DNA of 64,000 nucleotides, taken from positions 1,267-65,266 of the forward strand of contig CALBPF010000339.1 of assembly GCA_937899105.1 (NCBI GenBank), written 5' to 3'. Within the stretch, counting starts at the first letter, position 1. Each line of letters begins with the position of its first letter. The notes under the pieces are model-generated. The model was not told where the DNA came from. It made no database searches and was given only the letters and a program-made list of their open reading frames with translations. The position numbers and the translations under genes were made by a program. This stretch comes from an uncultured Flammeovirgaceae bacterium (GTDB lineage: Bacteria > Bacteroidota > Bacteroidia > Cytophagales > Cyclobacteriaceae). Below are positions 13,983 to 37,413 of the stretch, piece after piece.

Positions 13983-14014
13983 AATACTCAAACTATTCTC
14001 AAATAAAACAAATT

Positions 14015-14995: not shown

Positions 14996-15030
14996 ATTCA
15001 AAATATTAATCTAGAAGTTAACTGAATTCT

Positions 15031-15990: not shown

Positions 15991-16067
15991 AAAAAAGAAC
16001 TTGGTAGTTAAAAATATCTTAATTTTATCTTTATAAACTTACCTTATGCAACCATTTTATTTCAATA

Positions 16068-18656: not shown

Positions 18657-20648
18657 ATGTATATTTTAGGTATTAATGGCAGCGCTAATCCTGTCCATGA
18701 AAATCGTTATGATGTAGGAGAAGGTAATAACCACGATTCATCTGCTGCCTTATTGCACAATGGCGAAGTGCTAGCAATTTATGAGGAAGAGCGCCTCAAT
18801 CGGATTAAGCATACCAATAAGTGGCCATGTTTAGCAATTAACGCCTGTCTGGACGTGGCAGGAATTACTTATGATCAGTTGGATTATTTCTCTTTTAACC
18901 TTACAGAATAAACACTGGAAAAAATATTATGGAATTATTTCAGTCAGCTTGGTATGAACCCACCTTCAGCACATACATTTTTGCAGCAATTACTTCAGGA
19001 TCAGTTTCAGGCGGATATCTCAACGGATAAGGTATTACTCTACAACCATCATTTCGCACATGCCGTAACCGCTTTTTATCCATCACAATTTGAGAAAGCG
19101 TTAGTTGTGACTATCGATGGATCTGGCGGTGAATATTCGGGAACCGTTTATGATGGTTCCGGAAATGATTTGAAGCTGCTGAGAACGTTTTCAGAGGAAC
19201 AGAGCTTAGGACATTTCTACAACCTGGTGACAAACATTTTAGGGTTTTCCAAAAATTTCGACGAGTATAAAGTTATGGGATTAGCGCCCTATGGAAACCC
19301 GGGTACTTATAAGGAATTATTTAGTCAGATGTATCGCCTTTTACCCGAGGGTAACTATGAACTCCATAAAGATTTTATGGTTGAGTTGATGGAGATCTGC
19401 GCCCTCGGTAATTCTAACAAAGTCTTTGGTCAGACCCATAAAGATATTGCCGCTTCTTTGCAAGAGGCCCTTGAAACTATCGTCTTTCATATCCTAAAAC
19501 ATTACGCGCAGGCTACAGGGCATAAAAAACTTTGTTTAGCAGGAGGGGTAGCGCTTAACTGTACAATGAACGGCAAACTATTAAGCTCCGGATTATTTGA
19601 AGATATTTTTGTTTATCCCGGAGCCAACGATAGTGGTTTGGCGGTAGGTAGCGCTTTAGCCGCTTACTATGAATACGAAAGAGATGCTAAGAGGAAGACG
19701 CTGCACAATATGTATGTGGGATCGGCTTTGGAAAATAGTGATGGTATTCGACAAGAGCTTGATCAATGGAAACAATTGGTCACTTATGAAAAATTAGTGG
19801 ACGCCCCCAGGAAAGCAGCCGAACTGCTGGCACAAGACAAAGTCATTGGATGGGTGCAAGGCAATTCTGAATTTGCTCCAAGAGCGCTGGGTAACAGGAG
19901 CATCCTGGCAGACCCAAGGCCGGCAAAAAACAAGGAGAGGATTAATTCCATGGTTAAAAAGAGAGAAGGCTTCCGGCCCTTTGCTCCATCGGTTATGGAA
20001 GAGTATGTTGCTGATTTTTTTGAATTGCCGACGAAAAGAACAGAATTCTCTCACATGACCTTTATTTTTAAAGTACAACAAAAATACAGAGAGCTTCTAG
20101 GTGCGATTACTCATGTGGACGGTACTGCCCGTGTTCAAACCGTTTCAAAAGAACTTAATAAAAAGTATTGGGAGCTTATAGATCATTTCAGAGAGCTAAC
20201 CGAAGTACCGATTGTATTGAATACTTCATTTAATAATAATGCGGAGCCAATTGTGGATTCGGTTAGGGATGCATTGGTATCGTTCTTAACTACACGTTTG
20301 GATTTCCTAATCGTCGGTGATTTTCTCGTTTCCAGAAAAGAGTTCTTTATTAGTCAAACCGAAGTACTGTATCCTGCGTTACCAGATCATATTTTTTGGG
20401 AAAATAGTGATAACACAACGCCTTCCTTGCTTACTTCCTTTAATGAAAAGGTGTTTACAGTTACTGAAAACCTCTATGCCGCCCTTAAGGAAGCCGATGG
20501 TAAAAAGAACATGAGAGAACTTTTGGAAAATGTGCCTGTTGATGAAAAGGGAAAAAGGCGGCTACTGGAAGAGTTACTTCAGCTCTGGGATAAGCGGGTG
20601 GTCATGCTTAGTCCCGTCCCTACTATAGTAACAGAGATGGCTATATAA
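18657..20648 (+). pseudogene. NodU/CmcH-family carbamoyltransferase interrupted by one in-frame TAA (ORF pieces 18657-18911 and 18954-20648 share a frame)
   Basis: N-terminal piece: MYILGINGS..HDSSAALLHNGEVLAIYEEERLNRIKH, the typical carbamoyltransferase N-terminus. C-terminal piece: DGSGGEYSGTV, LAGGVALNC, NSEFAPRALGNRSILADPR, FRPFAPSV, HVDGTARVQTV. Both start positions are 0 mod 3. The read-through sequence is ..FNLTE*TLEKILWNYFSQLGMNPP with no other stop. Confidence 0.85.
18909..18911 (+). other. In-frame TAA inside the carbamoyltransferase reading frame
   Basis: Codon-by-codon check: CTT ACA GAA TAA ACA CTG GAA AAA. Confidence 0.95.
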
Positions 20649-20750
20649 AAGCTTTCATTCACTGCCATGTTATAGGCAGATTCAATACTGTTAAGCCATT
20701 CTGATATTATTTCTTTTAGTACTAAGTATTCTTTAAAAATCATTTAGTGA

Positions 20751-23700
20751 ATGCAAGTAGCATCTGAAAAGAGGAGCAAATTAGAAAAGAGCAATGTAGA
20801 GGAGATTTTTGAATTGAGTATGATTCAAAAAGGTATGTTATTCCATCATTTGAAAGGAGCTCAAGATAATCTCTACAATGCTCAGCTATCTTTAAGCATA
20901 AATGGTAACCTGGACGCGAATCTCATTAAAGAGTCTTTTAAAGCCGTACAGAGAAAGAATGAAACGCTGAGATCAATCTTTAATTGGGAGAAAGCGAATA
21001 AGCCGCTACAAATAGTTCTCAAAGAATGCCCGTTCGATTTTTTCTATCATGACCTCTCTGGAACGAATGATTCAGAGATAAATGAAAGGATCGAAAATTA
21101 TGCTCAGAGCGACAGGGAAAAACGATTTGACCTCGGCCAACTTCCTATTAGACTACGTTTGTTAAAAGTGACTAAATTGGATTATGTGTTTAATGTAACG
21201 CATCATCATATCTTGTATGACGGTTGGAGTTCTAGCCTAATGATCAAAGAGATCTTCGAAGCTTACGAGAGATTGGCGCGCGAAGAATATTCGGGTTTTA
21301 ATCAAAAGCCAAATTTCAAGACGGTCTGGCGTGAGCTGTTGAATATATCTGATCCAGTACAGAGTGAGACTTTTTGGAAAGATTATGTGAAGGGTTATGA
21401 GATAACCTCGCTCTTCTCCACAAGTAATGCTCATTTAGAAAATGATACAAAGGTTCAAAAGTATTCTGCTAGTGTTCCCGGTAGCGGATTGAAACGTTTT
21501 GCGATTGAACAAAAGGTCACACAAGCATCTGTTGTGTATGCAGCATTCGGAATACTGCTCAGCAAATACATCCAAAAGTCTGACATAGTGTTTGGCACAA
21601 CAGTATCAGGCAGATATCCGATAATCAACGGGATAGACCAGTTAATTGTGAACTTTATAAATACCGTTCCCTTAAGAGTAAGTAAGCTTTCTGACAAAAC
21701 GCTAAGGGAAGTCGTTATCGGAGTTAACAAAGACCTCATTGACCGTGATTCCCATGTAGACACCTCATACTATGAAATTAAACAACTGCTTGGCCTGCAA
21801 CCCGAAGAAAGTTTGTTTGATGCCATTTTGGTCGTAGAGAACTACCCCGTAGAAGACTCATTATTTGGAGATCAGAATAACTTTAAAGTCAAATTTAAAT
21901 CTAACTATGAGAACTCGGACATACCGTTGGTGGTGAACGTCTTTTTTAAAGGAAAGTTAGAAATTGATATCATATACAAAAGATGTAATGTCAGTGACTC
22001 ATTTGTGGAGGAACTTGCGCACTACTTTATCAACATACTTTGTCAAATATCCTCTACACCTACCATGAAAGTACGGGAGTTAACTTTATTGACCGAGCAG
22101 GAACTTAAACATTATTTATACGGATTTAATGACACCAATGTAAATGATTATGCAGATGAAACCATACTGACACTTTTTGATCGGCAGGCTGCCAGAACTC
22201 CTCATCATCCTGCCTATAGTTTTGATAATGAATGTGTTGATTACAAAACATTACAAAAGTTATCTGATAAAATAGCGCACTACCTTATAGATTCGGTCGG
22301 CATCAAACCGAAAGACCTGGTGGGGGTGATGCTTAATAGGGAAAAATATCTTATTCCTGCAATTTTGGGTATCCTTAAAACTGGAGCTGCTTATCTTCCG
22401 GTTGACCCTGAATATCCCATTGCGAGGAAAAGCGATATTATCCAGGATGCCGACCTGCAGACTTTGATCACAAGGTCGGAGCTTATGACCGGGTTACAGG
22501 CAGCGCCAGTAAATCCGGTGAATTTGAGCGAGCTAATAAAAGAGATAGAAGACTGGCCTGACGTTCGTACTGAGGCTCAAATAAATAAAAATGATCTGGC
22601 TTATGTAATCTATACCTCAGGTTCTACTGGTAGCCCCAAAGGTGTTATGGTTGCTCATCGATCATTGGCAAATTACGTTACCTGGGCGGCAGAAAAGTAT
22701 ATTCAGGGTGAAAATGGCAACATGCCGCTATATACTTCCATATCCTTTGACCTTACGATCACTTCTATCTTTTTGCCGCTAATCAGCGGGAATAAAGTCA
22801 TATTATATCCTGAAAATGATAAAGGCTTGCTGATCGAAAAAGTAATGGAAGATGCTGATATTGATTTGATAAAGCTTACACCTTCTCATTTAAAAGTTAT
22901 AAGAGGCCATTCAAGTGACCTGATGAGAACAACCAAAATCAAAACATTAATTGTAGGCGGTGAGGAGTTAGAAACTGAGCTGGCCAAAAGCATTTATCAA
23001 ATATTTAAAGGGGATGTAGAAATTTTTAATGAATATGGACCCACAGAGGCGACCGTAGGATGTATGGTCCATCGTTTTGATCCGAAACAATATTCTTTAT
23101 CCGTTCCAATTGGTGTTCCGGCTAACAATACACAGGTACATCTTTTGGATAATTGTTTACAACCCGTTGCTAAAGGCTTTATTGGAGAATTATATTTATC
23201 CGGAGATGGAATTGCTCAAGGATATCTTTTTAATGAAGCCTTGACCCATGAGAAATTTGTAGATAACCCCTTTGTAGAAGGAACGCGAATGTATAAGACT
23301 GGCGACCTTGCCGTTCGTGATTCTACTGACCTATTGATCTTTAAAGGTAGACGAGATGATCAGGTAAAAGTAAATGGGCATAGAATAGAGTTGGGCGAAA
23401 TACAGGAAAGAATTAAGAGCTATCATTCTTTTGCCAATGGAAAATCAACTTCGCATTCCAATGGCGCCAGCGCTTTTGTTACCATAAAAGAAAATGGGGA
23501 AGGCGTGAAGGCAATTGTGGCTTATTACAGTGCATCTACCAACATTGATAAGAAAGTGTTGAGAGAATACCTTTTGACTCACCTGCCTGATTATATGATC
23601 CCACAATACTTTGTCCAGCTAAAGGAATTTCCCCTTACCTCTAATGGTAAAATTGACAAGAGATCTTTGCCGGCGCCGGAAGCAGATAAAAGTATTGTTT

Positions 23701-26621
23701 TTGAGCTTCCAAGAACGGAAAAAGAAAAATTGCTTGCAGCCATATGGTCTGAGGTATTAGCCGTTAAAAATGTAAGTATAACGGACAACTTTTTTTCTCT
23801 GGGAGGGGACTCTATTAAATCCATACAAATAAGCTCCAGGATGCGAAATGCAGGTTACGACCTTTCGGTTAACGATGTTTTGAGCATTCAGACAATAAAA
23901 GAGCTTGCAAAAAAAGTTCAGAAAACTACGTTTCAATCTGATCAATCATCAGTATCAGGAGATGTAGTATTATCTCCTATTCAAAAGTGGTTTTTTACAG
24001 AGGCTCAAAGAGATCACCATCATTTTAATCAATCCGTATTGCTAAGTTTTCATGGAGAAGTTCCAGAGCAGCATATTAGAATCATCTTTAAAAAAATACT
24101 GGAACATCACGATGCCCTACGCATGGTGTTTAATGAAAGCAATGGACAAATTGTCCAGATTAATCAGAGCGCTGATGCGATTGAGGTAGCCCTTTCTGTT
24201 CACGATCTCAGAACTGCAGTAAGGCCATTTGAAGAACTCAGGTCTATCTCCAACCAGATCCAAAATAGTATAAACCTCGAGCATGGCCCGATGCTCAAAC
24301 TAGGACTATTTTATTTTAACGGAGAAACCCGCTTATTGATCGTAATTCATCATTTGGTGGTGGACAGCGTTTCCTGGAGAATACTGTTCGAGGACATAGA
24401 TACATTGTATCAGCAAACAATGGAAGATAAGACGATGTCTTTACCTCTCAAAACCGATTCCTTTCAGCTTTGGGCTACTTACCTCCAACAATATGTTGGA
24501 AATGAAGGTTTTGAAAAGAGGGTTCCTTATTGGAAGGCCATTTTGGATCAAAAGAGTGAGCGAATAGAGCGTGATTATCCGGATGGCGGTAACCTCATGG
24601 GTGATACGGGGAAGGTCTTCATACATCTGGACCATTCATCGACTGAAAGATTGTTAACAGGTATTCATCAGGCTTTTGGAACACAAGTGAATGACATACT
24701 TTTAACAGCGTTGGTACAGTCGATCTACAGGCGATATGGCCATAGTAGTACCAAAATTAACCTTGAGACCCACGGACGAGAACGTATTTTTCCAAGAATA
24801 AATATTAACCGTACTATAGGTTGGTTTACCAGCATGTACCCGGTAACTCTTGAAAAAAAAGGAAAGGACTTGGGTGAGCTAATAAAGCATGTAAAAGAAG
24901 CGCTCAGGCAGGTTCCTAATTATGGCATGGACTTTTTACTAAGTCGATACTTGAAGGATGGTTATTCTTCAAATCCGGAAGTGTATGCCCAAATAAGCTT
25001 TAATTATCTGGGACAGTTTGACACTGATATTGCCGGTAAATCATTTACACTAAGTAACGAAGATAGGGGTGAAGAGATCTCTACCAACATCAGTAAATAT
25101 TCGGATTGGGACATTACCGGTTCTGTGGTGGACGGAGCGCTGAAAATGAATTTGCTTTATAGCCGCAAGCAATTTAGAAAGAGTTCCATAGACGCATTTA
25201 TGGATGATTTTAAGGATAGTCTTCAGAGTATCATAAGTTACTGTCTTAATATAGCTAAGAGAGAGTTCACACCGTCTGACATGTCATTTAAAGGACTTTC
25301 CATAGCGCAACTAAATTCTATACAGGAAGAGTATGACCTTGAAGACATTTACAGGTTATCTCCAATGCAGGAGGCCATGTTGTTTCATTCACTTTTTAAT
25401 ATCGATTCGGACCACTACTTCTCACAGATCACTTATAGGTTTACCGGTAATCTGGACATCAATGCGGTAGAAAAAAGTATGAATGACCTAACAGCCAGGT
25501 ATGATGTATTACGTACCGTATTTCTGCATCAAGGTTACGACGAACCCATTCAGTTGGTGTTAAAAGAACGTAAAATTGACTTTGTGTATGAGGATATTCG
25601 AGAGCGCTGTAAAGGAGAAGATAAAGGTCATATTATCGGGCTTTATCAGCGGCAAGATAGGGCAAGTAAGTTTAATCTGAGCAAAGATGTCTTGATGCGA
25701 CTGTCCGTTCTGCAGACAGCAGATGATGAATACGAATTTATATGGAGTCATCATCATATTCTCATGGATGGATGGAGTATGGCCATTATTATCAAGGATT
25801 ACCTGGACTTGTATGAGAATAACGAAAAGCATATTGAGCTTTCATTACCACCCACCAAACCCTATGGACGTTACATAGAATGGCTCGATACAGTAAACAA
25901 TACCGAAACTATTGAATATTGGACACAATATCTGACGAATTATGATCATATCTCTACCTTACCAAAGGCCACAATTTCTAAGTCTGACAGCTCCTCTTAT
26001 CGTTTAAAAATACATGAATTGGTATTAGATGAGGATGATACCAGGCGGCTTCAGGAAGGTTCAAGTGGTAGTGGCATCACATTAAATACGCTCTTCCAAA
26101 TGTCATGGGGAATACTACTGTCGAAATACAGTAATAAAAGTGATGTGATATTTGGTTCAGTGGTATCAGGCCGTCCGGTAGAATTGGAAGGAATTGAACA
26201 AATGGTGGGTCTGTTCATAAACACTCTACCTGTTAGAATAAGATATGAGGAAGATAGTGATATAACACAGCTGTTACAAGAGTCACAAAAAAAAGCATTG
26301 GAAGCCGAACCATACAGCCGCTACCCGTTGCGTAGCATTCAATCATTAACCAAGCTTGGAAAAGATCTTTTTGATCATATCATAGTCTTCGAAAACTATC
26401 CGATGTCGGCATACCTGGAACGTGATAATGATTATACCATATCCAATATACAAGTATTCGACCAGGTAAATTATGACTTAATGTTAGTCGTTATTCCCGA
26501 GCGGGAATTTAAAATACGGTTCAACTATAACGCCAATGTTTATAATGATGATCTCATACTACAGATTTCCGGTCATCTAAAAGAAATTTTAAGGTTAATA
26601 ACCCCTAAAAACGAGCAATGA
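20751..26621 (+). CDS. NRPS-2: C(D-donor type)-A(Asn-type)-T-E-C(D-donor type); ends in the C-A linker
   Basis: 1956 aa. C: MIQKGMLFHH, HHHILYDGWS ~21201-21230. A: TSGSTGSPKG ~22611-22640, code DLTKIGEVGK. T: GGDSIKSIQ, Ser 23811-23813. E: HHLVVDSVSW ~24347-24380. C: SPMQEAMLFH, HHHILMDGWS ~25750-25780. The TGA stop overlaps the next ATG (ATGA 26618-26621). Confidence 0.95.
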   Translation: MQVASEKRSKLEKSNVEEIFELSMIQKGMLFHHLKGAQDNLYNAQLSLSINGNLDANLIKESFKAVQRKNETLRSIFNWEKANKPLQIVLKECPFDFFYHDLSGTNDSEINERIENYAQSDREKRFDLGQLPIRLRLLKVTKLDYVFNVTHHHILYDGWSSSLMIKEIFEAYERLAREEYSGFNQKPNFKTVWRELLNISDPVQSETFWKDYVKGYEITSLFSTSNAHLENDTKVQKYSASVPGSGLKRFAIEQKVTQASVVYAAFGILLSKYIQKSDIVFGTTVSGRYPIINGIDQLIVNFINTVPLRVSKLSDKTLREVVIGVNKDLIDRDSHVDTSYYEIKQLLGLQPEESLFDAILVVENYPVEDSLFGDQNNFKVKFKSNYENSDIPLVVNVFFKGKLEIDIIYKRCNVSDSFVEELAHYFINILCQISSTPTMKVRELTLLTEQELKHYLYGFNDTNVNDYADETILTLFDRQAARTPHHPAYSFDNECVDYKTLQKLSDKIAHYLIDSVGIKPKDLVGVMLNREKYLIPAILGILKTGAAYLPVDPEYPIARKSDIIQDADLQTLITRSELMTGLQAAPVNPVNLSELIKEIEDWPDVRTEAQINKNDLAYVIYTSGSTGSPKGVMVAHRSLANYVTWAAEKYIQGENGNMPLYTSISFDLTITSIFLPLISGNKVILYPENDKGLLIEKVMEDADIDLIKLTPSHLKVIRGHSSDLMRTTKIKTLIVGGEELETELAKSIYQIFKGDVEIFNEYGPTEATVGCMVHRFDPKQYSLSVPIGVPANNTQVHLLDNCLQPVAKGFIGELYLSGDGIAQGYLFNEALTHEKFVDNPFVEGTRMYKTGDLAVRDSTDLLIFKGRRDDQVKVNGHRIELGEIQERIKSYHSFANGKSTSHSNGASAFVTIKENGEGVKAIVAYYSASTNIDKKVLREYLLTHLPDYMIPQYFVQLKEFPLTSNGKIDKRSLPAPEADKSIVFELPRTEKEKLLAAIWSEVLAVKNVSITDNFFSLGGDSIKSIQISSRMRNAGYDLSVNDVLSIQTIKELAKKVQKTTFQSDQSSVSGDVVLSPIQKWFFTEAQRDHHHFNQSVLLSFHGEVPEQHIRIIFKKILEHHDALRMVFNESNGQIVQINQSADAIEVALSVHDLRTAVRPFEELRSISNQIQNSINLEHGPMLKLGLFYFNGETRLLIVIHHLVVDSVSWRILFEDIDTLYQQTMEDKTMSLPLKTDSFQLWATYLQQYVGNEGFEKRVPYWKAILDQKSERIERDYPDGGNLMGDTGKVFIHLDHSSTERLLTGIHQAFGTQVNDILLTALVQSIYRRYGHSSTKINLETHGRERIFPRININRTIGWFTSMYPVTLEKKGKDLGELIKHVKEALRQVPNYGMDFLLSRYLKDGYSSNPEVYAQISFNYLGQFDTDIAGKSFTLSNEDRGEEISTNISKYSDWDITGSVVDGALKMNLLYSRKQFRKSSIDAFMDDFKDSLQSIISYCLNIAKREFTPSDMSFKGLSIAQLNSIQEEYDLEDIYRLSPMQEAMLFHSLFNIDSDHYFSQITYRFTGNLDINAVEKSMNDLTARYDVLRTVFLHQGYDEPIQLVLKERKIDFVYEDIRERCKGEDKGHIIGLYQRQDRASKFNLSKDVLMRLSVLQTADDEYEFIWSHHHILMDGWSMAIIIKDYLDLYENNEKHIELSLPPTKPYGRYIEWLDTVNNTETIEYWTQYLTNYDHISTLPKATISKSDSSSYRLKIHELVLDEDDTRRLQEGSSGSGITLNTLFQMSWGILLSKYSNKSDVIFGSVVSGRPVELEGIEQMVGLFINTLPVRIRYEEDSDITQLLQESQKKALEAEPYSRYPLRSIQSLTKLGKDLFDHIIVFENYPMSAYLERDNDYTISNIQVFDQVNYDLMLVVIPEREFKIRFNYNANVYNDDLILQISGHLKEILRLITPKNEQ

Positions 26622-29600
26622 AATTATCTGATATCAACTTGTCGTCAAAAAAAGAACAAGAACAGCTACTTAATGATCTGGATAAGACTTCTGTTGCTTT
26701 TCCCATAAACAAGACGGTAGTAGATCTTTTTCATGATCAGGTAAAAAGAATACCAGATAACATAGCCATTAAGTTTGAAGATCAGGTAGTCACCTATTTA
26801 GAGCTGGATCGGAGGGCCTCCAAGTTAGCTTCGTTGCTTAGAAAAGAAGGTGTTATGAAAGATACCTTGGTCGGTTTGTTAGCCGATAGGAGAATAGAAA
26901 CAGTGATAGGCATATTGGCCGTACTCAAATCAGGAGGCGCATATGTACCAATTGACACTGATTACCCACAGGAAAGAATGGATTTTCTTATCCAGGACAG
27001 CGGCGTAAAAATATTATTGACTACCGAACACCAAATAGGTCATTTGCCGACGGGATTACGTTATATTCCCATACACGCAGCAGAGAAAAACTCTAGTCTT
27101 GAGCCGGTTATAGGAAACAGTATTAAACCATCCGACCTGTGCTATGTCATTTACACCTCGGGTACCACGGGTAATCCGAAAGGAGTAATGGTAGAACACA
27201 GAAATGTGGTGAGATTGTTTTTTAATGATTCATTCCAGTTTCAGTTCGGTGAAGATGATGTATGGACTATGTTCCATAGTCATTGTTTTGATTTTAGTGT
27301 TTGGGAAATATTCGGAGCGCTACTTTTCGGTGGGGAGCTTATTATAATTCCTAAAGCCGTAGCCAGGGATCCAAAAGCATTTTTGGATATTATGGTTAAT
27401 GAGCGAGTGACCGTATTAAACCAAACACCTAGTGCATTTTATAATTTGATTGAGCGGGAACTAAGCCAGGCAGATTCAATCCCAAACAGCCTTAAATATG
27501 TAATATTTGGTGGAGAAGCTTTGACGCCAGGACGATTGAAGGACTGGAAAAACAGGCATTCGGAAGTCAAAATGGTTAACATGTTTGGTATCACAGAAAC
27601 AACCGTACATGTGACTTACAAGGAGATTGGAAGCTTTGAGATAGAAAATAATCTGAGCAACGTAGGCAAGCCGATCCCTACTTTGTCGGTGTATATCCTG
27701 GATGAGCAACATAAATGGGTGCCTAAAGGTGCAGTCGGTGAAATGTATGTTGGAGGGTCAGGTGTTTCGCGCGGTTACTTAGGCAACAAAAAGCTGACCG
27801 ATCAAAAGTTCGTTTCTAACCCCTTTAAGGAAAACGAAAAGTTATACCGTACGGGTGATCTTGCACGGATCATTGATACCGGAGACATTGAATACATTGG
27901 AAGAATGGATCACCAGGTACAACTCAGAGGATTCCGGATAGAACTGGAAGAAATTCAACACAACCTGGAAAGCCATCAGCAAATATCTTCTTCCGTAGTG
28001 CTGATCATGGAAAATGAAGCGAATAAATTCCTTGTGGCTTATTATGTTTCTGACACTGAACTGGAAACCAGTACATTGAGAGCATACCTGTTGGAGAAGA
28101 TACCCGATTATATGGTGCCGTCTTACTTTGTACACCTGACAGAGCTACCTCTGACGAGTAATGGTAAGTTGAACAGGGATGCACTGCCTGACCCAGAATT
28201 AAAAACAACCCAGAACTATTTGGCTCCCAGAACAAAAGAGGAGGTTTTACTTGCGGGGATATGGTCTCAGGTCCTTGGATTTCAAGACATTGGAGTAACA
28301 GATGATTTTTTTTCCCTGGGAGGCGATTCTATCAAATCCATTCAAATAAGTTCAAGAGTGCGTGGTGAGGGATATGAACTCTCCGTCAAAGATATTTTCA
28401 CTGTTCCTACCGTTAGAGAACAGTCCTTAAAGCTTAAGCCGTTAGCAAGGACCTCTGAGCAGGCGATCATCACCGGTCCGGTTCCTCTTGCTCCCATACA
28501 AAGGTGGTTTTTTGATGGCCCAATAGAATCAAAGCATCACTTTAACCAATCGGTATTACTTCATTTTTCTGAGGAAATAAGTACGGATTTTTTAAGAAGA
28601 ATATTGTCAAAACTTCAGGAACATCATGACGTATTGCGAATGGTATTCAGAAAGGAGGGAGATGAAATACACCAAGAGAATTTAGATACGGGTTTGCAGG
28701 TTTCACTGGAAGAATATGATCTTATAGCTGGCCCAGAGTCGGAAGACTCCTTTTTAAAGATAGCGGATACATTACAATCCGGAATAAACCTGGAAGAAGG
28801 TCCTTTAATGAAAACAGCTCTTTTCCACTTTGGAACCTACAGTCGCCTGTTAATTGTAATGCATCACCTGATTACTGATGGCGTCTCATGGCGCATATTC
28901 TTAGACGATTTAGCTACATTATACCGACAAATCACAGAAGACACCCCTTTTACTTTACCTCTTAAAACAGATTCCTACAAGTCATGGGCTCAGAACCTGA
29001 AAGGGTATACTAAAAAGCCTTATTTTCTACAAGCGCTTCAATATTGGAAAAATCGTTTATCCGAGAAAGGAGAGGCGATACCAAAAGATAATCCTGATGG
29101 GCAGTGCTCACTGGAGCATTTTGATACCTCTTCTTTTCAGCTAGAAGAGAAGCTTACAAAAAGACTATTAACTCAAGCAAATTTAAGTTTCAATACTCAA
29201 ATCAGCGATCTATTGCTGACAGCATTATGGGTGGCCGTTAAAAAACAGTACGACATTGAGAAGCTTTGGATAGATATTGAAAGTCATGGCAGACATGATC
29301 TTTATGATGGCGAAAATGTAACCCGTACCATGGGGTGGTTCACAACGATCTATCCGGTTTTACTGAAAGGAGAAGCTGGCTCATTTGAAAAGATTATTAA
29401 GGATATAAAAGAAAGCCTGCGAAATATTCCTAATGATGGAATAGATGTTTTTGTAAGTAACTACCTGGGCGCCGGAAAATCACTTCCTCTTTATGATAAA
29501 TCCAGGATCAGTTTTAACTACTTGGGAGAACTATATAATGATGATACAGCCTATCCTTTCCGATTGTTAGAGGTTAACAGAGGCCATGAGGTAGCTCAAC

Positions 29601-32257
29601 ACGGACCTTGGTTTTATGATTGGGACATTGTAGGGATGATTACCGGAGGCAAGTTAAAGATAGATGTACGCTACAGTAAAGATCAATACGAAAAACGGTC
29701 AATGAATAGATTTGTTGATCTTTACAAACAGTCATTGTATGAAATTATTGACTATTGCTGTGACCGCCCAAAATCTATTCTTACCCCTTCCGACATTACC
29801 TATACATCACTTTCAATAGGTCAACTAGATGCTCTACAGGAGATATACGATGTCCAGGACGTTTACCCGCTTACTCCCATGCAGGAGTCTATGCTTTATA
29901 ATACATTAAAAGAACCTGAAGCTGAACATTATTTGATCCAGGTTGCCTATGAGATAACCGGACAACCTGATATCAAAAACATCCATAAAAGCGCTAACCA
30001 ATTGATAGACCGGTACGATGTTTTAAGAACAGTTTTTCTTTATGATCTGTATGAACGCCCGCTGCAGGTAGTCCTAAAGCAGAGGAAGATAGATTTTCAA
30101 TTTTATGATATTCAAAAAGAATGCGATTTCACTACGGAAACAGAGCTGGTAAATACTTATTGTATTAAGGAAAGATCCAGAAAGTTTGATGCATCTAAAG
30201 ACGTTTTAATACGACTCACTGTTCTTCAAACTGCGCAAGACAGATTCCTCTTTATTTGGAATTACCATCATATACTGATGGATGGATGGTGTATGGGGAC
30301 CATTCTAAAAGACTTTGAGAAGATTTATGCTCAAAATGAATCTAAAGAGCTTATAACACTTCATAAAGTGAGACCCTATTCAAGTTATATCAAATGGCTT
30401 GAACAGCGAGATCATTCTGAATCACTATCTTACTGGAAAAACTATCTGGCATCTTATTCCGGCTTAGCGACTTTGCCATTCAAAAAGAGAGCCTCTGAAC
30501 GGCTTCCTTATACTTATGAAAGTCATACGTTACTATTGAATACCGCACAAACTGAAGTACTGCATAAAATATGTAATGACCATAGAGTCACAGTTAATGC
30601 AGCGCTCCAATGTGCGTGGGGTATACTACTGGCCAGGTATAATAATATACATGACGTTGTGTTTGGAACGGTGATGTCCGGTCGGCCCGCTGAGATTGAA
30701 GGGGTCGAGGAAATGGTAGGACTGTTTATAAATACAGTTCCCGTAAGGATAAGTTATGAAGAAGATACCACTGTCAAAGTCCTGTTAAAAAACATCCAAA
30801 AAAACACATTGGAAACAGAGCATTATCAATACGCCTCATTGTCAGAGATTCAAGCACAGTCTGATCTTGGCGCTGGATTGCTAGATCATATTATGATTGT
30901 AGAGAACTATCCTTTGTCAGGTCAATTGGAAGATGGTGGACAAGATCATTCAAAAAAGGGGTATGTTATAGATAACATTGAAGTTAAAGAGCAGAATAGT
31001 TATGACCTGACACTCTTCGTACTTCCGGGAAATAAATTAGAAATACGATTTGACTATAACTCAAACGTTTATGACAAGGCAAAAATAGAAAGAGTTGCAG
31101 CGCATTTTTGGAATGTGATCAATAGCATACATCATAAGTCAGGACAAAAAGTTTCAGAAATTGAAATTATCGGTGATGAGGAAAAGCAGGAGCTTTTGTA
31201 TTCATTTAATGATACCTATGTGGATTATCAAAGAGAGGAAACCATAGTATCCTTATTTGAAAAACAGGTGCATTCTACTCCGGAAAAAGTGGCTGTTCGG
31301 TATGAAAACAATGAGTTATCTTATAAAGAACTTAACCAACGATCCGATCATTTGGCTTCTTATCTTAAAGAAAGATACGGAATAGGAGTTGGAAGCTATG
31401 TCGCAATTATGATGGAAAGATCCGAAGCTATGCTTACCGGTATGCTGGGGATTATGAAAGCCGGGGCAGCTTATATCCCGATCGATCCGACTTATCCTAC
31501 AAAGAGAATTGAGTACATTCTTAAAGATAGTGGAGCCCAAGTATTACTCCTTGGAGACTCCTTGGAGACTGTAACTTCCAGTTATAAAGGAGAAATTGTT
31601 CGATTTGATGGTAGTATTATTGATGTTTCAGACCATAATAATAGAAATAGTATAGTTACTTCTGAAGACTTGTGTTACTTGATATATACTTCCGGGTCCA
31701 CCGGAAACCCCAAGGGTGTTATGATCTCCCATGCTAGTGTAGTCAACTTCTTTGCAGGTATGGATCAACATTTTGAAATAGATGAAGATGACAGCTTACT
31801 CGCTCTAACTAGTACTTCTTTCGATATTTCTGTGTTGGAATTGTTTTGGACATTATGTCGAGGGGCACAAGTAGTGATACATCCTACAGATACAACTCCT
31901 GGCGGGTTAAATCGCTATGTTGCTCATAAAAGCGCTCAGATGGACTTTGGTCTTTTCTTTTTCTCCAGCTATAATAATAGTGGAGAGTGTAAATATGATC
32001 TGCTACTGGAGTCTGTTAAGTATGCTGATCGGGAAGGGTTTCGATCCGTATGGACGCCAGAACGTCATTTTCACGAATTTGGTGGATTATTCCCTAATCC
32101 ATCTGTGACCAGCGCGGCTTTGGCTACAGTTACGAAGCAGATCGAATTACGTAGTGGAAGTATAGTGGCCCCCTTACATGATCCGATCAGGGTCGCTGAA
32201 GAGTGGTCCGTGGTAGACACCCTTTCCAAAGGAAGAGTCGGTTTATCCTTTGCATAG
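26618..32257 (+). CDS. NRPS-3 part a: A(Thr)-T-E-C(D-donor type)-A(Gly, N-terminal half)-start of embedded monooxygenase; terminated by an in-frame TAG
   Basis: 1879 aa; starts directly in a C-A linker (KLSDINLSSKKEQEQLLNDLDKT). A: TSGTTGNPKG ~27151-27185, code DFWNIGMVHK. T: GGDSIKSIQ ~28320. E: HHLITDGVSW ~28861-28895. C: HHILMDGWC ~30265-30295. A: TSGSTGNPKG ~31686-31715, FDISVLELF. Then MDFGLFFFSS..WTPERHFHEFGG (LLM fold). Confidence 0.9.
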   Translation: MKLSDINLSSKKEQEQLLNDLDKTSVAFPINKTVVDLFHDQVKRIPDNIAIKFEDQVVTYLELDRRASKLASLLRKEGVMKDTLVGLLADRRIETVIGILAVLKSGGAYVPIDTDYPQERMDFLIQDSGVKILLTTEHQIGHLPTGLRYIPIHAAEKNSSLEPVIGNSIKPSDLCYVIYTSGTTGNPKGVMVEHRNVVRLFFNDSFQFQFGEDDVWTMFHSHCFDFSVWEIFGALLFGGELIIIPKAVARDPKAFLDIMVNERVTVLNQTPSAFYNLIERELSQADSIPNSLKYVIFGGEALTPGRLKDWKNRHSEVKMVNMFGITETTVHVTYKEIGSFEIENNLSNVGKPIPTLSVYILDEQHKWVPKGAVGEMYVGGSGVSRGYLGNKKLTDQKFVSNPFKENEKLYRTGDLARIIDTGDIEYIGRMDHQVQLRGFRIELEEIQHNLESHQQISSSVVLIMENEANKFLVAYYVSDTELETSTLRAYLLEKIPDYMVPSYFVHLTELPLTSNGKLNRDALPDPELKTTQNYLAPRTKEEVLLAGIWSQVLGFQDIGVTDDFFSLGGDSIKSIQISSRVRGEGYELSVKDIFTVPTVREQSLKLKPLARTSEQAIITGPVPLAPIQRWFFDGPIESKHHFNQSVLLHFSEEISTDFLRRILSKLQEHHDVLRMVFRKEGDEIHQENLDTGLQVSLEEYDLIAGPESEDSFLKIADTLQSGINLEEGPLMKTALFHFGTYSRLLIVMHHLITDGVSWRIFLDDLATLYRQITEDTPFTLPLKTDSYKSWAQNLKGYTKKPYFLQALQYWKNRLSEKGEAIPKDNPDGQCSLEHFDTSSFQLEEKLTKRLLTQANLSFNTQISDLLLTALWVAVKKQYDIEKLWIDIESHGRHDLYDGENVTRTMGWFTTIYPVLLKGEAGSFEKIIKDIKESLRNIPNDGIDVFVSNYLGAGKSLPLYDKSRISFNYLGELYNDDTAYPFRLLEVNRGHEVAQHGPWFYDWDIVGMITGGKLKIDVRYSKDQYEKRSMNRFVDLYKQSLYEIIDYCCDRPKSILTPSDITYTSLSIGQLDALQEIYDVQDVYPLTPMQESMLYNTLKEPEAEHYLIQVAYEITGQPDIKNIHKSANQLIDRYDVLRTVFLYDLYERPLQVVLKQRKIDFQFYDIQKECDFTTETELVNTYCIKERSRKFDASKDVLIRLTVLQTAQDRFLFIWNYHHILMDGWCMGTILKDFEKIYAQNESKELITLHKVRPYSSYIKWLEQRDHSESLSYWKNYLASYSGLATLPFKKRASERLPYTYESHTLLLNTAQTEVLHKICNDHRVTVNAALQCAWGILLARYNNIHDVVFGTVMSGRPAEIEGVEEMVGLFINTVPVRISYEEDTTVKVLLKNIQKNTLETEHYQYASLSEIQAQSDLGAGLLDHIMIVENYPLSGQLEDGGQDHSKKGYVIDNIEVKEQNSYDLTLFVLPGNKLEIRFDYNSNVYDKAKIERVAAHFWNVINSIHHKSGQKVSEIEIIGDEEKQELLYSFNDTYVDYQREETIVSLFEKQVHSTPEKVAVRYENNELSYKELNQRSDHLASYLKERYGIGVGSYVAIMMERSEAMLTGMLGIMKAGAAYIPIDPTYPTKRIEYILKDSGAQVLLLGDSLETVTSSYKGEIVRFDGSIIDVSDHNNRNSIVTSEDLCYLIYTSGSTGNPKGVMISHASVVNFFAGMDQHFEIDEDDSLLALTSTSFDISVLELFWTLCRGAQVVIHPTDTTPGGLNRYVAHKSAQMDFGLFFFSSYNNSGECKYDLLLESVKYADREGFRSVWTPERHFHEFGGLFPNPSVTSAALATVTKQIELRSGSIVAPLHDPIRVAEEWSVVDTLSKGRVGLSFA

Positions 32258-32965
32258 GGTTGGAATCCAAATGATTTTGTGTTGTCTCGTGACGAGTATG
32301 AAGACCGTCATCGCATTATGTATGAGGACATAGAAACAATTAAAAACCTATGGGAAGGAGGATCTATTAAACGAGATAATGCCCTGCATCAGGAAGTAGA
32401 AGTTAAGATCTTTCCTGCTCCGATTCAGACGAAATTACCAGTATGGGTCACGGCAGCTGGAAATGAGGAGACATTCCGTCACGCCGGACAGATAGGCGCT
32501 AACTTATTAACTCATTTGCTCGGACAAGACATTGAAACATTATCGGAAAAGATCAAGATATATCGTACTGCACGAAAAAAGGCCGGATATGATAGTGGTA
32601 AAGTAGCTCTAATGCTCCACACCTACATTGGAGACTCTCTGGAAGAAGTAGAACGCGCTGTTGAAGAGCCTTTCAAAGAGTACCTGAAAAGTTCTATTAA
32701 TTTATCAAAAGTGATATTTAATGAGGGAGGCTTGAAAGAAGAAGAACTTTCCCCTGAAATGAAGGAGGAAGTGTTGACAAATGCATTTAAGCGTTACTAT
32801 AAGACCAGCTCATTGATAGGCACAAAGAGCAGCTGTATGTCAATAGTTCACCGTGCCTTGGCTATCGGGGTAGATGAAATAGCTTGTTTGATAGATTTTG
32901 GAGTGGAAGAAGGTAAAGTACTAGATAATCTGAAAAATTTACGAGACTTGAAACAAGTATTTAAC
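31940..32965 (+). other. Luciferase-like monooxygenase (MOx/LLM) domain inserted in the Gly A domain after the A4 FDxS core and upstream of the TPS/A5 cores
   Basis: The A-domain sequence ..TSTSFDISVLELFWTLCRGAQVVI is followed by MDFGLFFFSS..YADREGFRSVWTPERHF..GRVGLSFA*GWNPNDF..LPVWVTAAGNEETF. The A domain then resumes at ..ISMMQSTPSLL..NMYGPTETT. The domain spans the TAG at 32255. Confidence 0.8.
32255..32257 (+). other. In-frame TAG inside the monooxygenase domain of NRPS-3
   Basis: TTT GCA TAG GGT TGG AAT CCA AAT GAT TTT GTG reads FA*GWNPNDFV. The flanking ORFs 26618.. and 32279.. are both 2 mod 3. Confidence 0.95.
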
Positions 32966-34078
32966 GGAGAACAACAATCACCTGGGAAGCCGATTAGCAT
33001 GATGCAGTCCACACCTTCGTTGCTCAAGCTGTTAAAGAACGATGAGGGATCAGACAAATTGTTAAACTCCCTGAGATTGTTATTAGTAGGCGGAGAGCCT
33101 ATAACTGCTTCCCTAGTTTCTGATCTTCAAAAAGAAACTAAAGCTGATATATATAATATGTACGGACCAACGGAAACAACTATTTGGTCTACTACAGGGA
33201 AATTTAGTGATAACGTGGACAAAGTAACTGTTGGAGGTCCGATTGCCAATACACAGATTTACATTTTAGGAAAAGACCTTCAACTACTTCCTCTAGGAGT
33301 AGAAGGGGATTTGTATATCGGAGGTGAAGGTTTGTCAAAAGGATACTGGAAGCAGCCGGCGCTCACCGAAGAACGGTTTATTGATCATCCGTTCTCTTCC
33401 AAGGGGAAAATATACAAAACCGGGGATAAGGCTAAATGGTTGGAAGATGGTAACATTCAATTGATAGGAAGAGATGACCACCAGGTTAAAATTCGAGGAT
33501 TCAGGATTGAGTTAGGAGAAATTGAAGCCAATCTTCTCTCACATAAATTGGTAAGCGAGGCAGTAGTGTTGGCAAAGGAAACTGCAGATGAAAAACGCCT
33601 CGTAGCATATGTGGTATTAAAAGAGAATGTAGATGCCGATCAGCTGAGAGGGTATTTATCGGGTAAACTTCCCCATTACATGGTTCCTGCCTATTATATG
33701 AAGCTGGATTCCTTCCCCCTTACCCCTAACAAAAAAATAGATAGGAGGGCTTTGCCAGACCCTGGTCTGAGTTCCGAAGGTGAATTTGTACCTCCGTCCA
33801 ATAAAACGGAGCAAAAATTGGTGGAAATATGGGGTGAGACCCTGGAAATACCTGCAGCCCAGATCAGTATTATCAAAACTTTTTTTGAATTAGGCGGGCA
33901 TTCCTTGAAGATAGCCACCTTGAAAAATAAGATCAGACAGCATTTCAATATTGATATGCCACTAAACGAGGTATTTAATTGGTCAACAGTAGAAAGGATG
34001 GCAGATTATCTAACGACTGTCGGCCAATTAGAAGAAGATTCGGACAAAGACAGCAAGATAGTTGAAATTATACTATGA
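32279..34078 (+). CDS. NRPS-3 part b: rest of monooxygenase domain - A(Gly, C-terminal half)-T-docking tail
   Basis: 599 aa in the same frame as part a. After the LLM remainder: LVGGEP, NMYGPTETTIWST, YKTGD, GRDDHQVKIRGFRIELGEIE, PNKKIDRRALP. T: GGHSL, Ser 33902-33904. Tail: ..EEDSDKDSKIVEIIL. Combined code DILQLGMIWK (Gly-type). The listed start is a GTG. Confidence 0.85.
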   Translation: MLSRDEYEDRHRIMYEDIETIKNLWEGGSIKRDNALHQEVEVKIFPAPIQTKLPVWVTAAGNEETFRHAGQIGANLLTHLLGQDIETLSEKIKIYRTARKKAGYDSGKVALMLHTYIGDSLEEVERAVEEPFKEYLKSSINLSKVIFNEGGLKEEELSPEMKEEVLTNAFKRYYKTSSLIGTKSSCMSIVHRALAIGVDEIACLIDFGVEEGKVLDNLKNLRDLKQVFNGEQQSPGKPISMMQSTPSLLKLLKNDEGSDKLLNSLRLLLVGGEPITASLVSDLQKETKADIYNMYGPTETTIWSTTGKFSDNVDKVTVGGPIANTQIYILGKDLQLLPLGVEGDLYIGGEGLSKGYWKQPALTEERFIDHPFSSKGKIYKTGDKAKWLEDGNIQLIGRDDHQVKIRGFRIELGEIEANLLSHKLVSEAVVLAKETADEKRLVAYVVLKENVDADQLRGYLSGKLPHYMVPAYYMKLDSFPLTPNKKIDRRALPDPGLSSEGEFVPPSNKTEQKLVEIWGETLEIPAAQISIIKTFFELGGHSLKIATLKNKIRQHFNIDMPLNEVFNWSTVERMADYLTTVGQLEEDSDKDSKIVEIIL

Positions 34079-34245
34079 GAATTGAACAATACCTGACCGT
34101 ACTTAGGAAGGAAAAGAATATTGTTGTTGCTTCTGAAGGCGGAAACCTTCAGATAAAAGCGAACCCAAAAGCTTTAACCAAGGAAATAGTTAATGAAATC
34201 AAGTCAAGAAAAAAGGAGATACTTGACTTTTATAGGGATACTGAA
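34075..34245 (+). other. TubC_N-like N-terminal docking domain of NRPS-4
   Basis: MRIEQYLTVLRKEKNIVVASEGGNLQIKANPKALTKEIVNEIKSRKKEILDFY follows the pattern helix, strand-turn-strand (X-L-X-V/I..), then ..L....I...K.EI..F seen in beta-hairpin NRPS docking domains. Confidence 0.55.
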
Positions 34246-37071
34246 GCAAAAGGCATATTTTTTAGTATACCTAAGAGTTCAAACAAATCCTATTATAAGC
34301 TTTCAACCTCTCAGAAAAGAATATACATCCTTCATAAGTTCGACCCCTTATCCCTGGCATATAACGAGACTCAAATACTCAGGCTGGAAGGCAAGTTAGA
34401 TAGAGACAAGCTGCAAAAAAGCTTTAAAAATCTTATCCAAAGACATGAAAGCTTGAGGACTTCCTTTCATATCATTGACAATGAGCCTTTGCAGGCGATT
34501 ACAGATGGAGTAGATTTTGAGATACAATACATTGAAGCAAATGGCGATCCTTCGGGAAAAGTAAGAAGCTTTGTCCGTGCATTTGATTTATCAAAAGCTC
34601 CTTTGATCAGGGTTGGTGTTGTCATTGAATCAGATATGTCCTACCTATTGATGGTGGATATGCATCATATAATTACGGATGGGGTTTCTCAACACATTAT
34701 GATGAGGGAGTTCTCTGCTTTGTTTAATGATCAATCCCTTCCTGAGATAAAATTGCAATACAGAGACTATGCTGAGTGGCAACAGTCTAAGCAGGAACGG
34801 CTTGACGTATCACGAATGAAGAGTTTCTGGCTGGAAAAATTTAAGAAAAATCCGTCGGTCCTGGAATTACCATTAGACTTTAAAAGGCCTGCAACAAAAA
34901 GCCATGAGGGGAATGCATTCACTTTTGACGTTGGAATGGAAGAAACAGTCCAGCTCAAATTGATCGCTGAGAAGCAGGGAACCACATTGTTTATGGTAGT
35001 GTTTTCTGTGTTTAACATTTTACTTACGAAACTAGGGAATCAAGAAGATATAGTCATTGGTGTTCCAGTGGCGAATCGCCAACATATTGACTTAGAGAAT
35101 GTTATTGGACCTTTTCTAAATACTTTGGCGCTGCGTAATCAGCCGAAATATGACCTCACATATAAAGAATTTTTAAGCGAGGTCCATAATGAAACACTAA
35201 AATGTTTTGAATATCAATCTTATCCTTTTGAAGACTTGATTGATAAATTAAAAATAGTGCGCGACACCAGTCGCAATCCATTATTTGACATCATGTTCCT
35301 CTTTCAAAGTTTTGGTTCGGAAAAGCTTGAATTGGATGGGCTTTCTTTAAAGCCCTATAAACGCGATCACTTTGTCTCCAAGTTTGACTTAAGCTTATTA
35401 GGCTATGAGTTAAAAGGCGTCATTCAGATGAAAATTGAATATAGCTCTAAATTATTCAAGTCCAAGACAATTGAGAAGTTCGCAGTCTATTTCAGCAACA
35501 TTATCAGGTCAATTATTCAAAATATTGACCAAAAGATCTCCGATATTGAAATTATTACGGACGAAGAAAAACAGCAATTGCTAGTCAGCTTCAACCAAAC
35601 CTCTTTAGCATTTGAGAAGGAAAAGGCATTACATAATATTTTCGAAAATATAGCGACTAAAATGCCTGGTAAAACGGCATTAATATTTGAAGGAAATCGG
35701 ATTACCTATCAGTCGCTCAACGAAAAAAGCAATCAAATAGCCCATAGGATTCTTAAATATGGAGCAAAACCCAGTGACAGAGTGGGCATATTGATGAGCA
35801 GATCGGTGGAAATGATTGCCAGCATATTTGGGATCTTGAAAGCAGGATGTGCCTATATTCCTATTGATCCCGAATATCCTGCTGCCAGGATTCAACACGT
35901 CGCTGCAGATAGCCGGATGAAGTTAATGCTGTGTGAGACTGTCTTAATGGATCGTTTGAATGCCACTGAGCTTTCTATAACGCTGGTAGATATTACCTTG
36001 TCTGACTTGTCACTGGAAAGCGTTGAAAATCTGGCTATTCGGGTTAATTCATCTGATCTGGCTTATATGATCTATACTTCAGGTTCTACCGGATTGCCAA
36101 AGGGAGTCATCATAGAACATAAAAGCGTAGTCAATTTTATTGCTGGCATTGTTGACAGAGTAAATTTCTCTCAAGACAGTGTAATTTTGTGCCTTACTAC
36201 GATATCATTTGACATCTTCGTACTTGAAACACTCCTTCCTCTTTTAACTGGAAGCCAGGTTATTCTAGCAAATAATGCAGAACAAAAAGATCCGGCCGCA
36301 CTATTGAGGCTTATTCGTTCTCATGAAGTTGATTTTTTACAGATCACTCCCTCTCATTTAAGTTTACTTATATCCAATGAAAATAGAGAACGAATTTTTG
36401 AAAATGTTAAGGCGCTAATGGTAGGTGGCGAGGTATTTCCGGAGAAATTATTGCAAGAGGTGAAGACCAGATATCAAGGAAAAATCTACAATATGTATGG
36501 ACCTACTGAAACTACAGTTTGGTCTACAGTAAAAGACCTTACCGATCAAAGCTCAGTGAACATTGGAAAACCTATTGCCAACACTCGCGTGAGAGTTATG
36601 GATAGCTGTCAGAATCTGCAGCCTGTAGGAGTATATGGAGAGTTATGTATTGGGGGTGAAGGGCTGGCCAGGGGATACTGGCAACAAGACGAATTGACCA
36701 GGAAAAAGTTTATCTATGATCCATACCACAAAGGTGAATTGATCTATCGTACAGGTGATCTGGTTCGATGGTTGCCCAATGGTGATCTGGAATACATTGG
36801 CCGAATGGACAGTCAGGTGAAGTTAAGGGGCTTTCGGATCGAACTAAGTGAAATTGAAACCGTATTAGGCAGATATGAGTGTATCCACGAAGCTGTTGTG
36901 ACCCTAACGCAAAACTCAGCCGACAGAAATTTGGCAGCTTACTACCTCTCAGGCCAGGAACTAGACCCCTCAGTACTCAGGCGTTATTTGGCTTTGTGGT
37001 TGCCTGATTATATGATTCCAACCTATTTTATCCGAATGGAACGTTTTCCACTTCCTCCTAATGGGATGTAG
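34075..37071 (+). CDS. NRPS-4 part a: N-terminal docking domain-C(L-donor type)-A(Gly-type, A10 damaged); terminated by an in-frame TAG
   Basis: 998 aa. ATGA overlap with the upstream gene. C: MHHIITDGVS ~34661-34690. A: TSGSTGLPKG ~36071-36105, NMYGPTETTVWST, YRTGD, GRMDSQVKLRGFRIELSEIE; code DILQMGMVW-. The A10 box reads PLPPNGM* where all sister modules have NGK(I/L/V)(D/N). Confidence 0.9.
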   Translation: MRIEQYLTVLRKEKNIVVASEGGNLQIKANPKALTKEIVNEIKSRKKEILDFYRDTEAKGIFFSIPKSSNKSYYKLSTSQKRIYILHKFDPLSLAYNETQILRLEGKLDRDKLQKSFKNLIQRHESLRTSFHIIDNEPLQAITDGVDFEIQYIEANGDPSGKVRSFVRAFDLSKAPLIRVGVVIESDMSYLLMVDMHHIITDGVSQHIMMREFSALFNDQSLPEIKLQYRDYAEWQQSKQERLDVSRMKSFWLEKFKKNPSVLELPLDFKRPATKSHEGNAFTFDVGMEETVQLKLIAEKQGTTLFMVVFSVFNILLTKLGNQEDIVIGVPVANRQHIDLENVIGPFLNTLALRNQPKYDLTYKEFLSEVHNETLKCFEYQSYPFEDLIDKLKIVRDTSRNPLFDIMFLFQSFGSEKLELDGLSLKPYKRDHFVSKFDLSLLGYELKGVIQMKIEYSSKLFKSKTIEKFAVYFSNIIRSIIQNIDQKISDIEIITDEEKQQLLVSFNQTSLAFEKEKALHNIFENIATKMPGKTALIFEGNRITYQSLNEKSNQIAHRILKYGAKPSDRVGILMSRSVEMIASIFGILKAGCAYIPIDPEYPAARIQHVAADSRMKLMLCETVLMDRLNATELSITLVDITLSDLSLESVENLAIRVNSSDLAYMIYTSGSTGLPKGVIIEHKSVVNFIAGIVDRVNFSQDSVILCLTTISFDIFVLETLLPLLTGSQVILANNAEQKDPAALLRLIRSHEVDFLQITPSHLSLLISNENRERIFENVKALMVGGEVFPEKLLQEVKTRYQGKIYNMYGPTETTVWSTVKDLTDQSSVNIGKPIANTRVRVMDSCQNLQPVGVYGELCIGGEGLARGYWQQDELTRKKFIYDPYHKGELIYRTGDLVRWLPNGDLEYIGRMDSQVKLRGFRIELSEIETVLGRYECIHEAVVTLTQNSADRNLAAYYLSGQELDPSVLRRYLALWLPDYMIPTYFIRMERFPLPPNGM
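37069..37071 (+). other. In-frame TAG inside the A10 core of NRPS-4, next to a Lys-to-Met change at the catalytic A10 position
   Basis: AAT GGG ATG TAG AAT AAA AAG GAA TTG CCA reads NGM*NKKELP. The flanking ORFs are both 1 mod 3. Confidence 0.95.
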
Positions 37072-37083
37072 AATAAAAAGGAA

Positions 37084-37413
37084 TTGCCAGCGCCTAACAT
37101 AAACCTTACGCATAAATTTACTGCACCGGCAAATGGGACAGAACAGATATTGGTGGAGGTGTGGAGCGAGGTGTTGGATATTAAAATAACGACGCTCAGT
37201 GTTACAAGAAGTTTTTTTGAGCTGGGAGGCAATTCTCTGAATGCCACTGTTTTGATCAGTAAGATCAATAAGACGTTTAAAGTTACCATTCCACTGCAAT
37301 TGTTCTTCTCACTGGACACTATTCGGGAACTAGCGCATTATTTGGAATCCATTACTAACGATAGCCAGAACGTCGGAACAGTCAATGAAAATCAGGAAGA
37401 GTTTACTTTCTGA
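37084..37413 (+). CDS. NRPS-4 part b: T domain plus docking tail (continuation of the frame of 34075-37071)
   Basis: 109 aa. ..EQILVEVWSEVLDI..FFELGGNSLNATVLISKI, Ser codon 37234-37236. Tail ..NENQEEFTF. The listed start is a TTG. Confidence 0.8.
   Translation: MPAPNINLTHKFTAPANGTEQILVEVWSEVLDIKITTLSVTRSFFELGGNSLNATVLISKINKTFKVTIPLQLFFSLDTIRELAHYLESITNDSQNVGTVNENQEEFTF

Follow-up and report, generated by a model that had tools for sequence, protein, structure and literature searches.

Can a nonribosomal peptide synthetase (NRPS) cluster whose reading frames appear to be disrupted at four sites within 19 kb still make a product? The question is raised by a 64,000-nucleotide stretch of an uncultured Flammeovirgaceae bacterium (contig CALBPF010000339.1, positions 1,267 to 65,266; the whole stretch is referred to here as the window), which carries an NRPS cluster of the lipopeptide type and derives from a marine, Fulvivirga-like Bacteroidota metagenome-assembled genome (MAG). 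An earlier note on this DNA had marked in-frame stops at 18909, 32255 and 37069 and a frameshift-like split between a condensation and an adenylation domain at 26618, and had offered very recent pseudogenisation, base-call or assembly error, and some form of read-through or split expression as explanations. We consider it quite probable that the locus is a functional cluster with patches of miscalled bases that hold the three stops, and with a genuine, fixed gene boundary at 26618. The stops themselves are probably artefacts of this one assembly, and the cluster, as it occurs in the species, is intact and can be expected to make a product.

The genes and the boundary concerned are as follows (C, condensation; A, adenylation; T, thiolation; E, epimerization; aa, amino acids; LLM, luciferase-like monooxygenase):

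18657-20648, + strand, carbamoyltransferase (Pfam Carbam_trans_N/C), 663 aa in relatives; the window copy is broken by TAA at 18909-18911
20751-26621, + strand, N3, 1956 aa, C-A-T-E-C with a complete terminal C domain
26618-26621, + strand, ATGA stop/start overlap of N3 and N4 (the C|A split), a conserved gene boundary
26618-34078, + strand, N4, 2486 aa in relatives, A-T-E-C-A[MupA-type LLM inserted]-T; the window copy is broken by TAG at 32255-32257
34075-37413, + strand, N5, 1112 aa in relatives, docking-C-A-T; the window copy is broken by TAG at 37069-37071

Direct reading of the sequence recovers all four sites where the earlier note had placed them. The TAA at 18909-18911 is in frame and separates an open reading frame (ORF) at 18657-18911 from a second at 18954-20648; both match carbamoyltransferase, covering positions 9-66 of the Carbam_trans_N profile and then positions 122-346 together with Carbam_trans_C. 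The in-frame TAG at 32255-32257 falls within the LLM domain, which is itself inserted in the second A domain of N4, and the Bac_luciferase profile is matched on its two sides over positions 3-102 and 119-311. The TAG at 37069-37071 lies within the A10 motif of N5, which reads NGM-stop here and NGKL in relatives. It occupies the residue after the A10 Lys, whose own codon is AAG in relatives and ATG in the window, and it severs the T domain, with a PP-binding domain following at 37084-37413. At 26618, the TGA of ORF 20751-26621 overlaps the ATG of ORF 26618-32257 as ATGA; the upstream protein ends in a complete C domain, and the downstream protein begins with the C-A linker and an A domain. Profile matches indicate that the same frame resumes downstream of all three stops, and the 10.5 kb (38522-49018) and 7.2 kb (53871-61040) ORFs are indeed intact. 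The earlier note took the lesions for single events in otherwise conserved coding sequence; this has to be corrected, since each stop is accompanied by 2-4 more changes private to the window within 30-70 bp.

Relatives were found by exact-protein matching, and six loci of the same cluster were aligned with the window over 16618-44078. These comprise two ENA 'BRYA16-1' scaffolds (L001/L008 and L004), the ENA contig L003 (coverage 10.9) and the NCBI MAG contigs L002/L005, L006 and L007; sister assemblies carry the names 'MAG: Fulvivirga sp.' or 'Bacteroidota bacterium', which speaks against the Bryopsis symbiont 'Ca. Endobryopsis' as a source. All six are same-species assemblies, 99.0-99.7% identical to the window, and they differ from it at 82 positions (L008, the nearest, over 27.4 kb) to 289 positions, essentially without indels. 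Each of the six has sense codons at all three stops, namely AAA (Lys) at 18909, TCG (Ser) at 32255 and AAG-TTG (Lys-Leu) at 37066-37071. Other cluster proteins on record that cover the sites likewise carry a sense residue, in 9/9 cases at 18909 (in the context ...NLTEKTLEK...), 9/9 at 32255 (GRVGLSFASGW) and 12/12 at 37069 (RFPLTPNGKLNKKEL). Intact proteins of 663, 2486 and 1112 aa are found on at least 8 other contigs: the carbamoyltransferase is intact at 663 aa in L002-L008, and N5 is represented by 10 or more different intact alleles. Truncated forms, of 564, 1879, 599 and 998 aa, have been recorded solely from the window's own contig of 65,690 bp. None of the six aligned loci carries the stops or the changes that surround them, nor does any of the 9-12 other recorded proteins per site; the nearest relative, L008, lacks all three stops. 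The earlier note had suggested a search of related genomes for sense codons; every relative carries them at the three stops, which favours sequence error.

The changes that surround the stops were defined by setting the differences of the window against the six relatives. Eight of the changes private to the window are isolated, and these are all transitions, six of them synonymous, as expected of young natural variants. The remaining 24 lie in five patches of 31-114 bp and comprise 20 transversions and only 4 transitions:

18879-18909, patch 1: G>T, A>T, A>T (the last is the stop); all private, none synonymous
21615-21649, patch 2: A>T, G>T, T>A, G>T, G>T; five private transversions
32220-32287, patch 3: A>C, T>A, T>A, C>A (stop), A>T; all private transversions
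37053-37086, patch 4: A>T, A>C, A>T (K>M of A10), T>A (stop), A>G
40548-40661, patch 5: T>A, A>C and A>C, all missense, and three synonymous transitions; within the intact 10.5 kb ORF

The patch transversions are A>T (6), T>A (5), G>T (4), A>C (4) and C>A (1). By effect, the patch changes amount to 3 stops, 12 missense and 9 synonymous changes, and all three stops are inside patches. Polymorphism shared among the strains consists of 191 transitions and 77 transversions, a spectrum from which that of the patches is clearly distinct (Fisher, p = 1.2e-6), as it is from that of the isolated private changes (p = 8e-5). The number of stops is close to what chance would give: 24 random changes of the same spectrum in these genes are expected to generate 1.84 stops, 3 are observed, and P(>=3) = 0.28, patch 5 being without a stop by chance. 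The A10 Lys that is replaced in patch 4 (K>M) is invariant in the 12 other cluster members. This pattern fits miscalled bases at poorly covered spots and not the accumulation of mutations.

Similar irregularities are seen in the sister assemblies. Patch 2 sits exactly on a scaffold gap of Ns in L008 (21621-21634), where the gap, with a small deletion, splits N3 of that assembly into 309 + 1602 aa. Private changes of L008 adjoin those of the window at 23.5, 37.04 and 40.55 kb, and L008 is also transversion-rich. It has a private TAA (window position 41763) that splits its N6 into 1080 + 2405 aa, with two more A<->T changes within ~145 bp. L004, of the same 'BRYA16-1' series and otherwise almost identical to L003 and L005, has a private patch of 5 changes in 16 bp (window 40813-40828). 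For the window and L008 together, A<->T changes make up 23/62 private changes, compared with 8/129 for L006 and L007 (p = 2e-7).

Because the stops are private to the window, occur amid changes of an unnatural spectrum and belong to a set of patches of which one lies on the gap of a sister assembly, sequence error is the explanation of the three stops that we favour from among those offered earlier. The patches would most likely have arisen where very few low-quality reads bridged the contig, with low coverage or low quality as their presumed cause. In two-colour sequencing chemistry, a transversion always alters one channel and a transition always alters two. Single-channel miscalls of two-colour Illumina chemistry would fit the spectrum of the patches and are a candidate mechanism. 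The 'BRYA16' label probably denotes the plastic-debris metagenomes of Bryant et al. 2016, which were sequenced by MiSeq and NextSeq500 (PMC5069773), a link made by name alone; no publication was found under the accessions.

Several points weigh against this combination of a functional cluster, miscalled patches and a fixed boundary. The error itself is deduced from pattern, and the cooperation of the two proteins that meet at 26618 would follow only from their conservation. The patches are unevenly placed, all five being inside 22 kb and none in the other ~27 kb compared (no error-like patch was detected in 6069-16617 or 43871-60655). The earlier note had likewise stressed a concentration of disruptions in 19 kb; the sites do lie there, but the clustering is statistically unremarkable, with a chance of ~0.14 by a rough estimate based on five patches at 18.9-40.7 kb of ~54 kb comparable. 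In addition, the patches contain 9 synonymous changes where 4.4 are expected at random. This excess would be explained if the four transitions were real variants.

If the stops are real, nonsense mutations in the carbamoyltransferase, N4 and N5 genes would very recently have deprived one strain of the pathway. The stops do stand in the deposited sequence, they arise by substitution and not by the indels that are the commoner assembly fault, and the nearest relative also has a private nonsense codon, so the lineage could be relaxing. However, none of at least nine other assemblies or alleles shares any stop, and the stops fall in tight private patches of transversions while the isolated private changes of the same strain are all transitions. 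Five multi-hit patches against 8 ordinary substitutions are unlike mutation accumulation, patch 2 coincides with the sister-assembly gap, and the frameshifts and deletions that are usual in decaying clusters are missing. Selection was assessed between strains from the ratio of nonsynonymous to synonymous polymorphism (pN/pS), which is 0.20-0.27 overall and 0.15-0.39 for the large genes; the individual genes give 0.17-0.24 (carbamoyltransferase), 0.29-0.34 (N3), 0.28-0.39 (N4) and ~0.2 (N5, in the pairs with enough differences). No coding indels separate the window from the six relatives. This purifying selection between strains indicates that the pathway is maintained in the species, although the pN/pS and indel tests are weak for very recent decay, since they would miss one that dates back only a few mutations. 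With lesions that even L008 does not share, and with no sign of relaxed selection or coding indels, the recent pseudogenisation proposed earlier appears unlikely. A variant in which patches and stops alike are real, produced by localised multi-nucleotide mutation (error-prone repair tracts) that has just knocked out three genes in one wild strain, is more doubtful still. It would imply the same process elsewhere in the sister strain and, in a marine Bacteroidota population, an unusual 'mutation shower' mechanism with a bias to transversions.

The clustering of changes in tracts of 30-110 bp could also recall short recombination or gene-conversion events from a diverged or pseudogenised paralogue, all the more so as NRPS modules are repetitive and natural variation in the cluster is itself clustered (L006 and L007). 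Yet no donor for any patch is present in the window, where only chance matches of at most 19 nt were found, and the carbamoyltransferase and the LLM domain have no paralogue there; moreover, from a diverged donor one would expect mainly transitions and synonymous changes, not 20 transversions with 3 stops. Such tracts are therefore a very improbable source of the patches. A diversity-generating retroelement was also considered and was rejected by inspection, the ancestral patch bases being A, T, G and C, not A alone, and the five targets being unrelated. Finally, full-length proteins could be made despite the stops if these were decoded, by reassignment, suppression or programmed read-through, or if a -1 frameshift occurred at 26618. 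Sequence past the stops is in frame and conserved, and a near-slippery T AAA AAC stands just upstream of the ATGA overlap. However, TAA, TAG and TGA are all ordinary terminators of conserved genes in the window, no tRNA genes are found in the window, and the three stop positions correspond to three different residues (K, S and L), encoded by sense codons, in relatives. The T AAA AAC heptamer is non-canonical, and it is the only one available, the N4 frame being closed by a TAA at 26606-08; the RNA downstream is no more structured than shuffled controls (z = -0.09). The read-through or recoding envisaged by the earlier note is therefore extremely improbable, given the ordinary use of the stops as terminators, a window without tRNA genes and three different residues in relatives.

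The site at 26618 is of another kind. No difference at or around the ATGA junction is seen among the 7 assemblies, N3 has 1956 aa in all complete copies on record (the L008 copy is broken at its N gap only), and pN/pS is 0.29-0.34 upstream of the junction (N3) and 0.28-0.39 downstream of it (N4). This site is thus not a lesion of this genome, as the earlier note had counted it, and what stands of that claim is its frameshift-like appearance, which resembles an old fission of the frameshift type. When the end of N3 (...ITPKNEQ) is joined to residue 2 of N4 (KLSDINLSS...), the product aligns without gaps to every contiguous C-A junction of the cluster; contiguous C-A-T modules from other phyla match it along its entire length (100%), with identities of 44-49%. 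Searched against proteins, the fused C+A junction matched nothing but contiguous C-A modules, none of them more than 49% identical. The gapless alignment argues that the boundary arose by a frameshift-type indel, in which two bases were gained or one was lost. An ordinary C-A module would have been split by this small indel, which created a stop and a start (ATGA) at the first residue of the C-A linker, and the N3 and N4 halves would now be separate subunits that are probably translationally coupled. Conserved in all seven assemblies and with selection on both sides, the C|A split is best read as a fixed gene fission and not as a lesion. It predates the divergence of the sampled strains, and the genes that flank it have remained under purifying selection since. 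The same ATGA overlap is found at a bona fide T|docking-C boundary of the cluster, at 34075. No docking domain is detectable at the C|A split, whereas the T|C boundaries of the cluster carry TubC_N docking domains. Tuberactinomycin synthetases include subunits that end in C and subunits that start with A; no open paper explicitly describing a natural C|A break was found. Engineering by exchange units makes its fusions at the C-A linker region.

A second non-canonical subunit junction is present further downstream. N6 ends in a complete C domain (aa 3074-3492 of 3498), and N7, which lies three tailoring genes downstream of N6, begins with the C-terminal lobe of a C domain only (aa 1 to ~250), followed by a linker and an A domain.

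The rest of the cluster was laid out from Pfam and NCBIfam matches and a domain map. The window has ~39% GC, and its large ORFs are nearly all on the + strand. In addition to the genes listed above, it contains the following:

2985-3548, UpxY-family (NusG-like) antiterminator at the cluster head (139 bits, cut-off 100)
6010-7428, stand-alone A-like enzyme, accompanied by a radical-SAM protein
7521-13982, N1, A-T-C-A-T-E/C
14015-15990, SbnA- and SbnB-family genes (2,3-diaminopropionate, Dap)
16068-18461, MacB/FtsX-type permease
37501-38448, TauD-family oxygenase
38522-49018, + strand, N6, 3498 aa, docking-C-A-T-E-C-C-A-T-C, intact in the window
49195-53731, serine hydrolase, FkbM methyltransferase and asparagine synthase
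53871-61040, + strand, N7, 2389 aa, half-C-A-T-E-C-A-T, intact
61049 onwards, N8, docking-C-A...

An antiterminator of the UpxY family at the cluster head is typical for long Bacteroidota operons, and no start codon in the window is preceded by a Shine-Dalgarno sequence. The SbnA/SbnB-family Dap genes (14015-15990) co-occur with the carbamoyltransferase (18657-20648) and the TauD-family oxygenase (37501-38448), a building-block set that we take to recall ureido- and Dap-containing peptides such as the tuberactinomycins. The window has a 16-bp insertion, TATTCATCTCATCTTT, at 50668-50683 in the intergenic space that separates the serine-hydrolase gene from the FkbM gene; L033, L034 and L035 do not have it. 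The independent assemblies L034 and L035 stop 3.4-3.8 kb into N8 (~64.4-64.8 kb window equivalent), and the window's own 65.7-kb contig can extend little past their ends; the N8 region seems to be uncrossable for short-read assemblers. Among species-representative genomes, the closest carbamoyltransferase has 46% identity (Chitinophaga varians). No syntenic orthologous cluster was found in other species, the three best full-flank matches inspected (L009, L010 and L012) being not syntenic. The representative genome of the species itself apparently lacks this contig, though at least 10 assemblies of the species exist elsewhere.

Which reading is adopted has consequences for the use of this MAG. 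If the stops are real, production of the carbamoylated lipopeptide would be impossible for this strain, whose cluster would be a case of decay in progress. If they are errors, as we think probable, mining of this MAG calls for the repair of three codons (AAA, TCG and AAG-TTG) before the product is predicted or expressed. The junction at 26618 is the one real architectural peculiarity: a C|A fission exact to the linker, with stop and start overlapping as ATGA and without a docking domain, that is maintained under selection. Since the cut is placed where the C-A linker begins, it is of modest interest for NRPS engineering.

The three stops resemble the spurious pseudogenes that base-call or consensus errors generate in low-coverage MAGs. 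They share with these their restriction to one assembly, clustering at read length, an unnatural spectrum of changes, a position beside the scaffold gap of a sister assembly and stops at the number expected at random; they differ in that the errors are all substitutions, without homopolymer indels. Decaying NRPS or polyketide synthase (PKS) clusters of host-restricted or relaxed lineages likewise carry in-frame stops within large synthetase genes, past which domains can still be recognised. In contrast to these, the present locus has no shared lesions, frameshifts or deletions, is under purifying selection (pN/pS ~0.2-0.3) and is intact in all other alleles. The domain struck by the stop at 32255 has its own known counterpart in A domains interrupted by an LLM of the flavin mononucleotide (FMN)-dependent MupA/Atu3671 type (NCBIfam TIGR04020). 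The intact N4 of the relatives has the same order, A(N-part)-LLM-A(C-part)-T, and its LLM reaches 449 bits (cut-off 244), although here the LLM matters solely as the domain in which that stop lies. Lastly, the C|A split can be compared with the natural split module formed by SyrB1 [A-T] and SyrE [C-T-TE] (review PMC8949500). In such intra-module breaks the A-T of a module is likewise on a separate polypeptide, and here one subunit ends in a C domain. Unlike SyrB1/SyrE-type breaks, the boundary at 26618 cuts the C-A linker cleanly at its first residue; stop and start overlap as ATGA, no residue is lost and one Met is gained.

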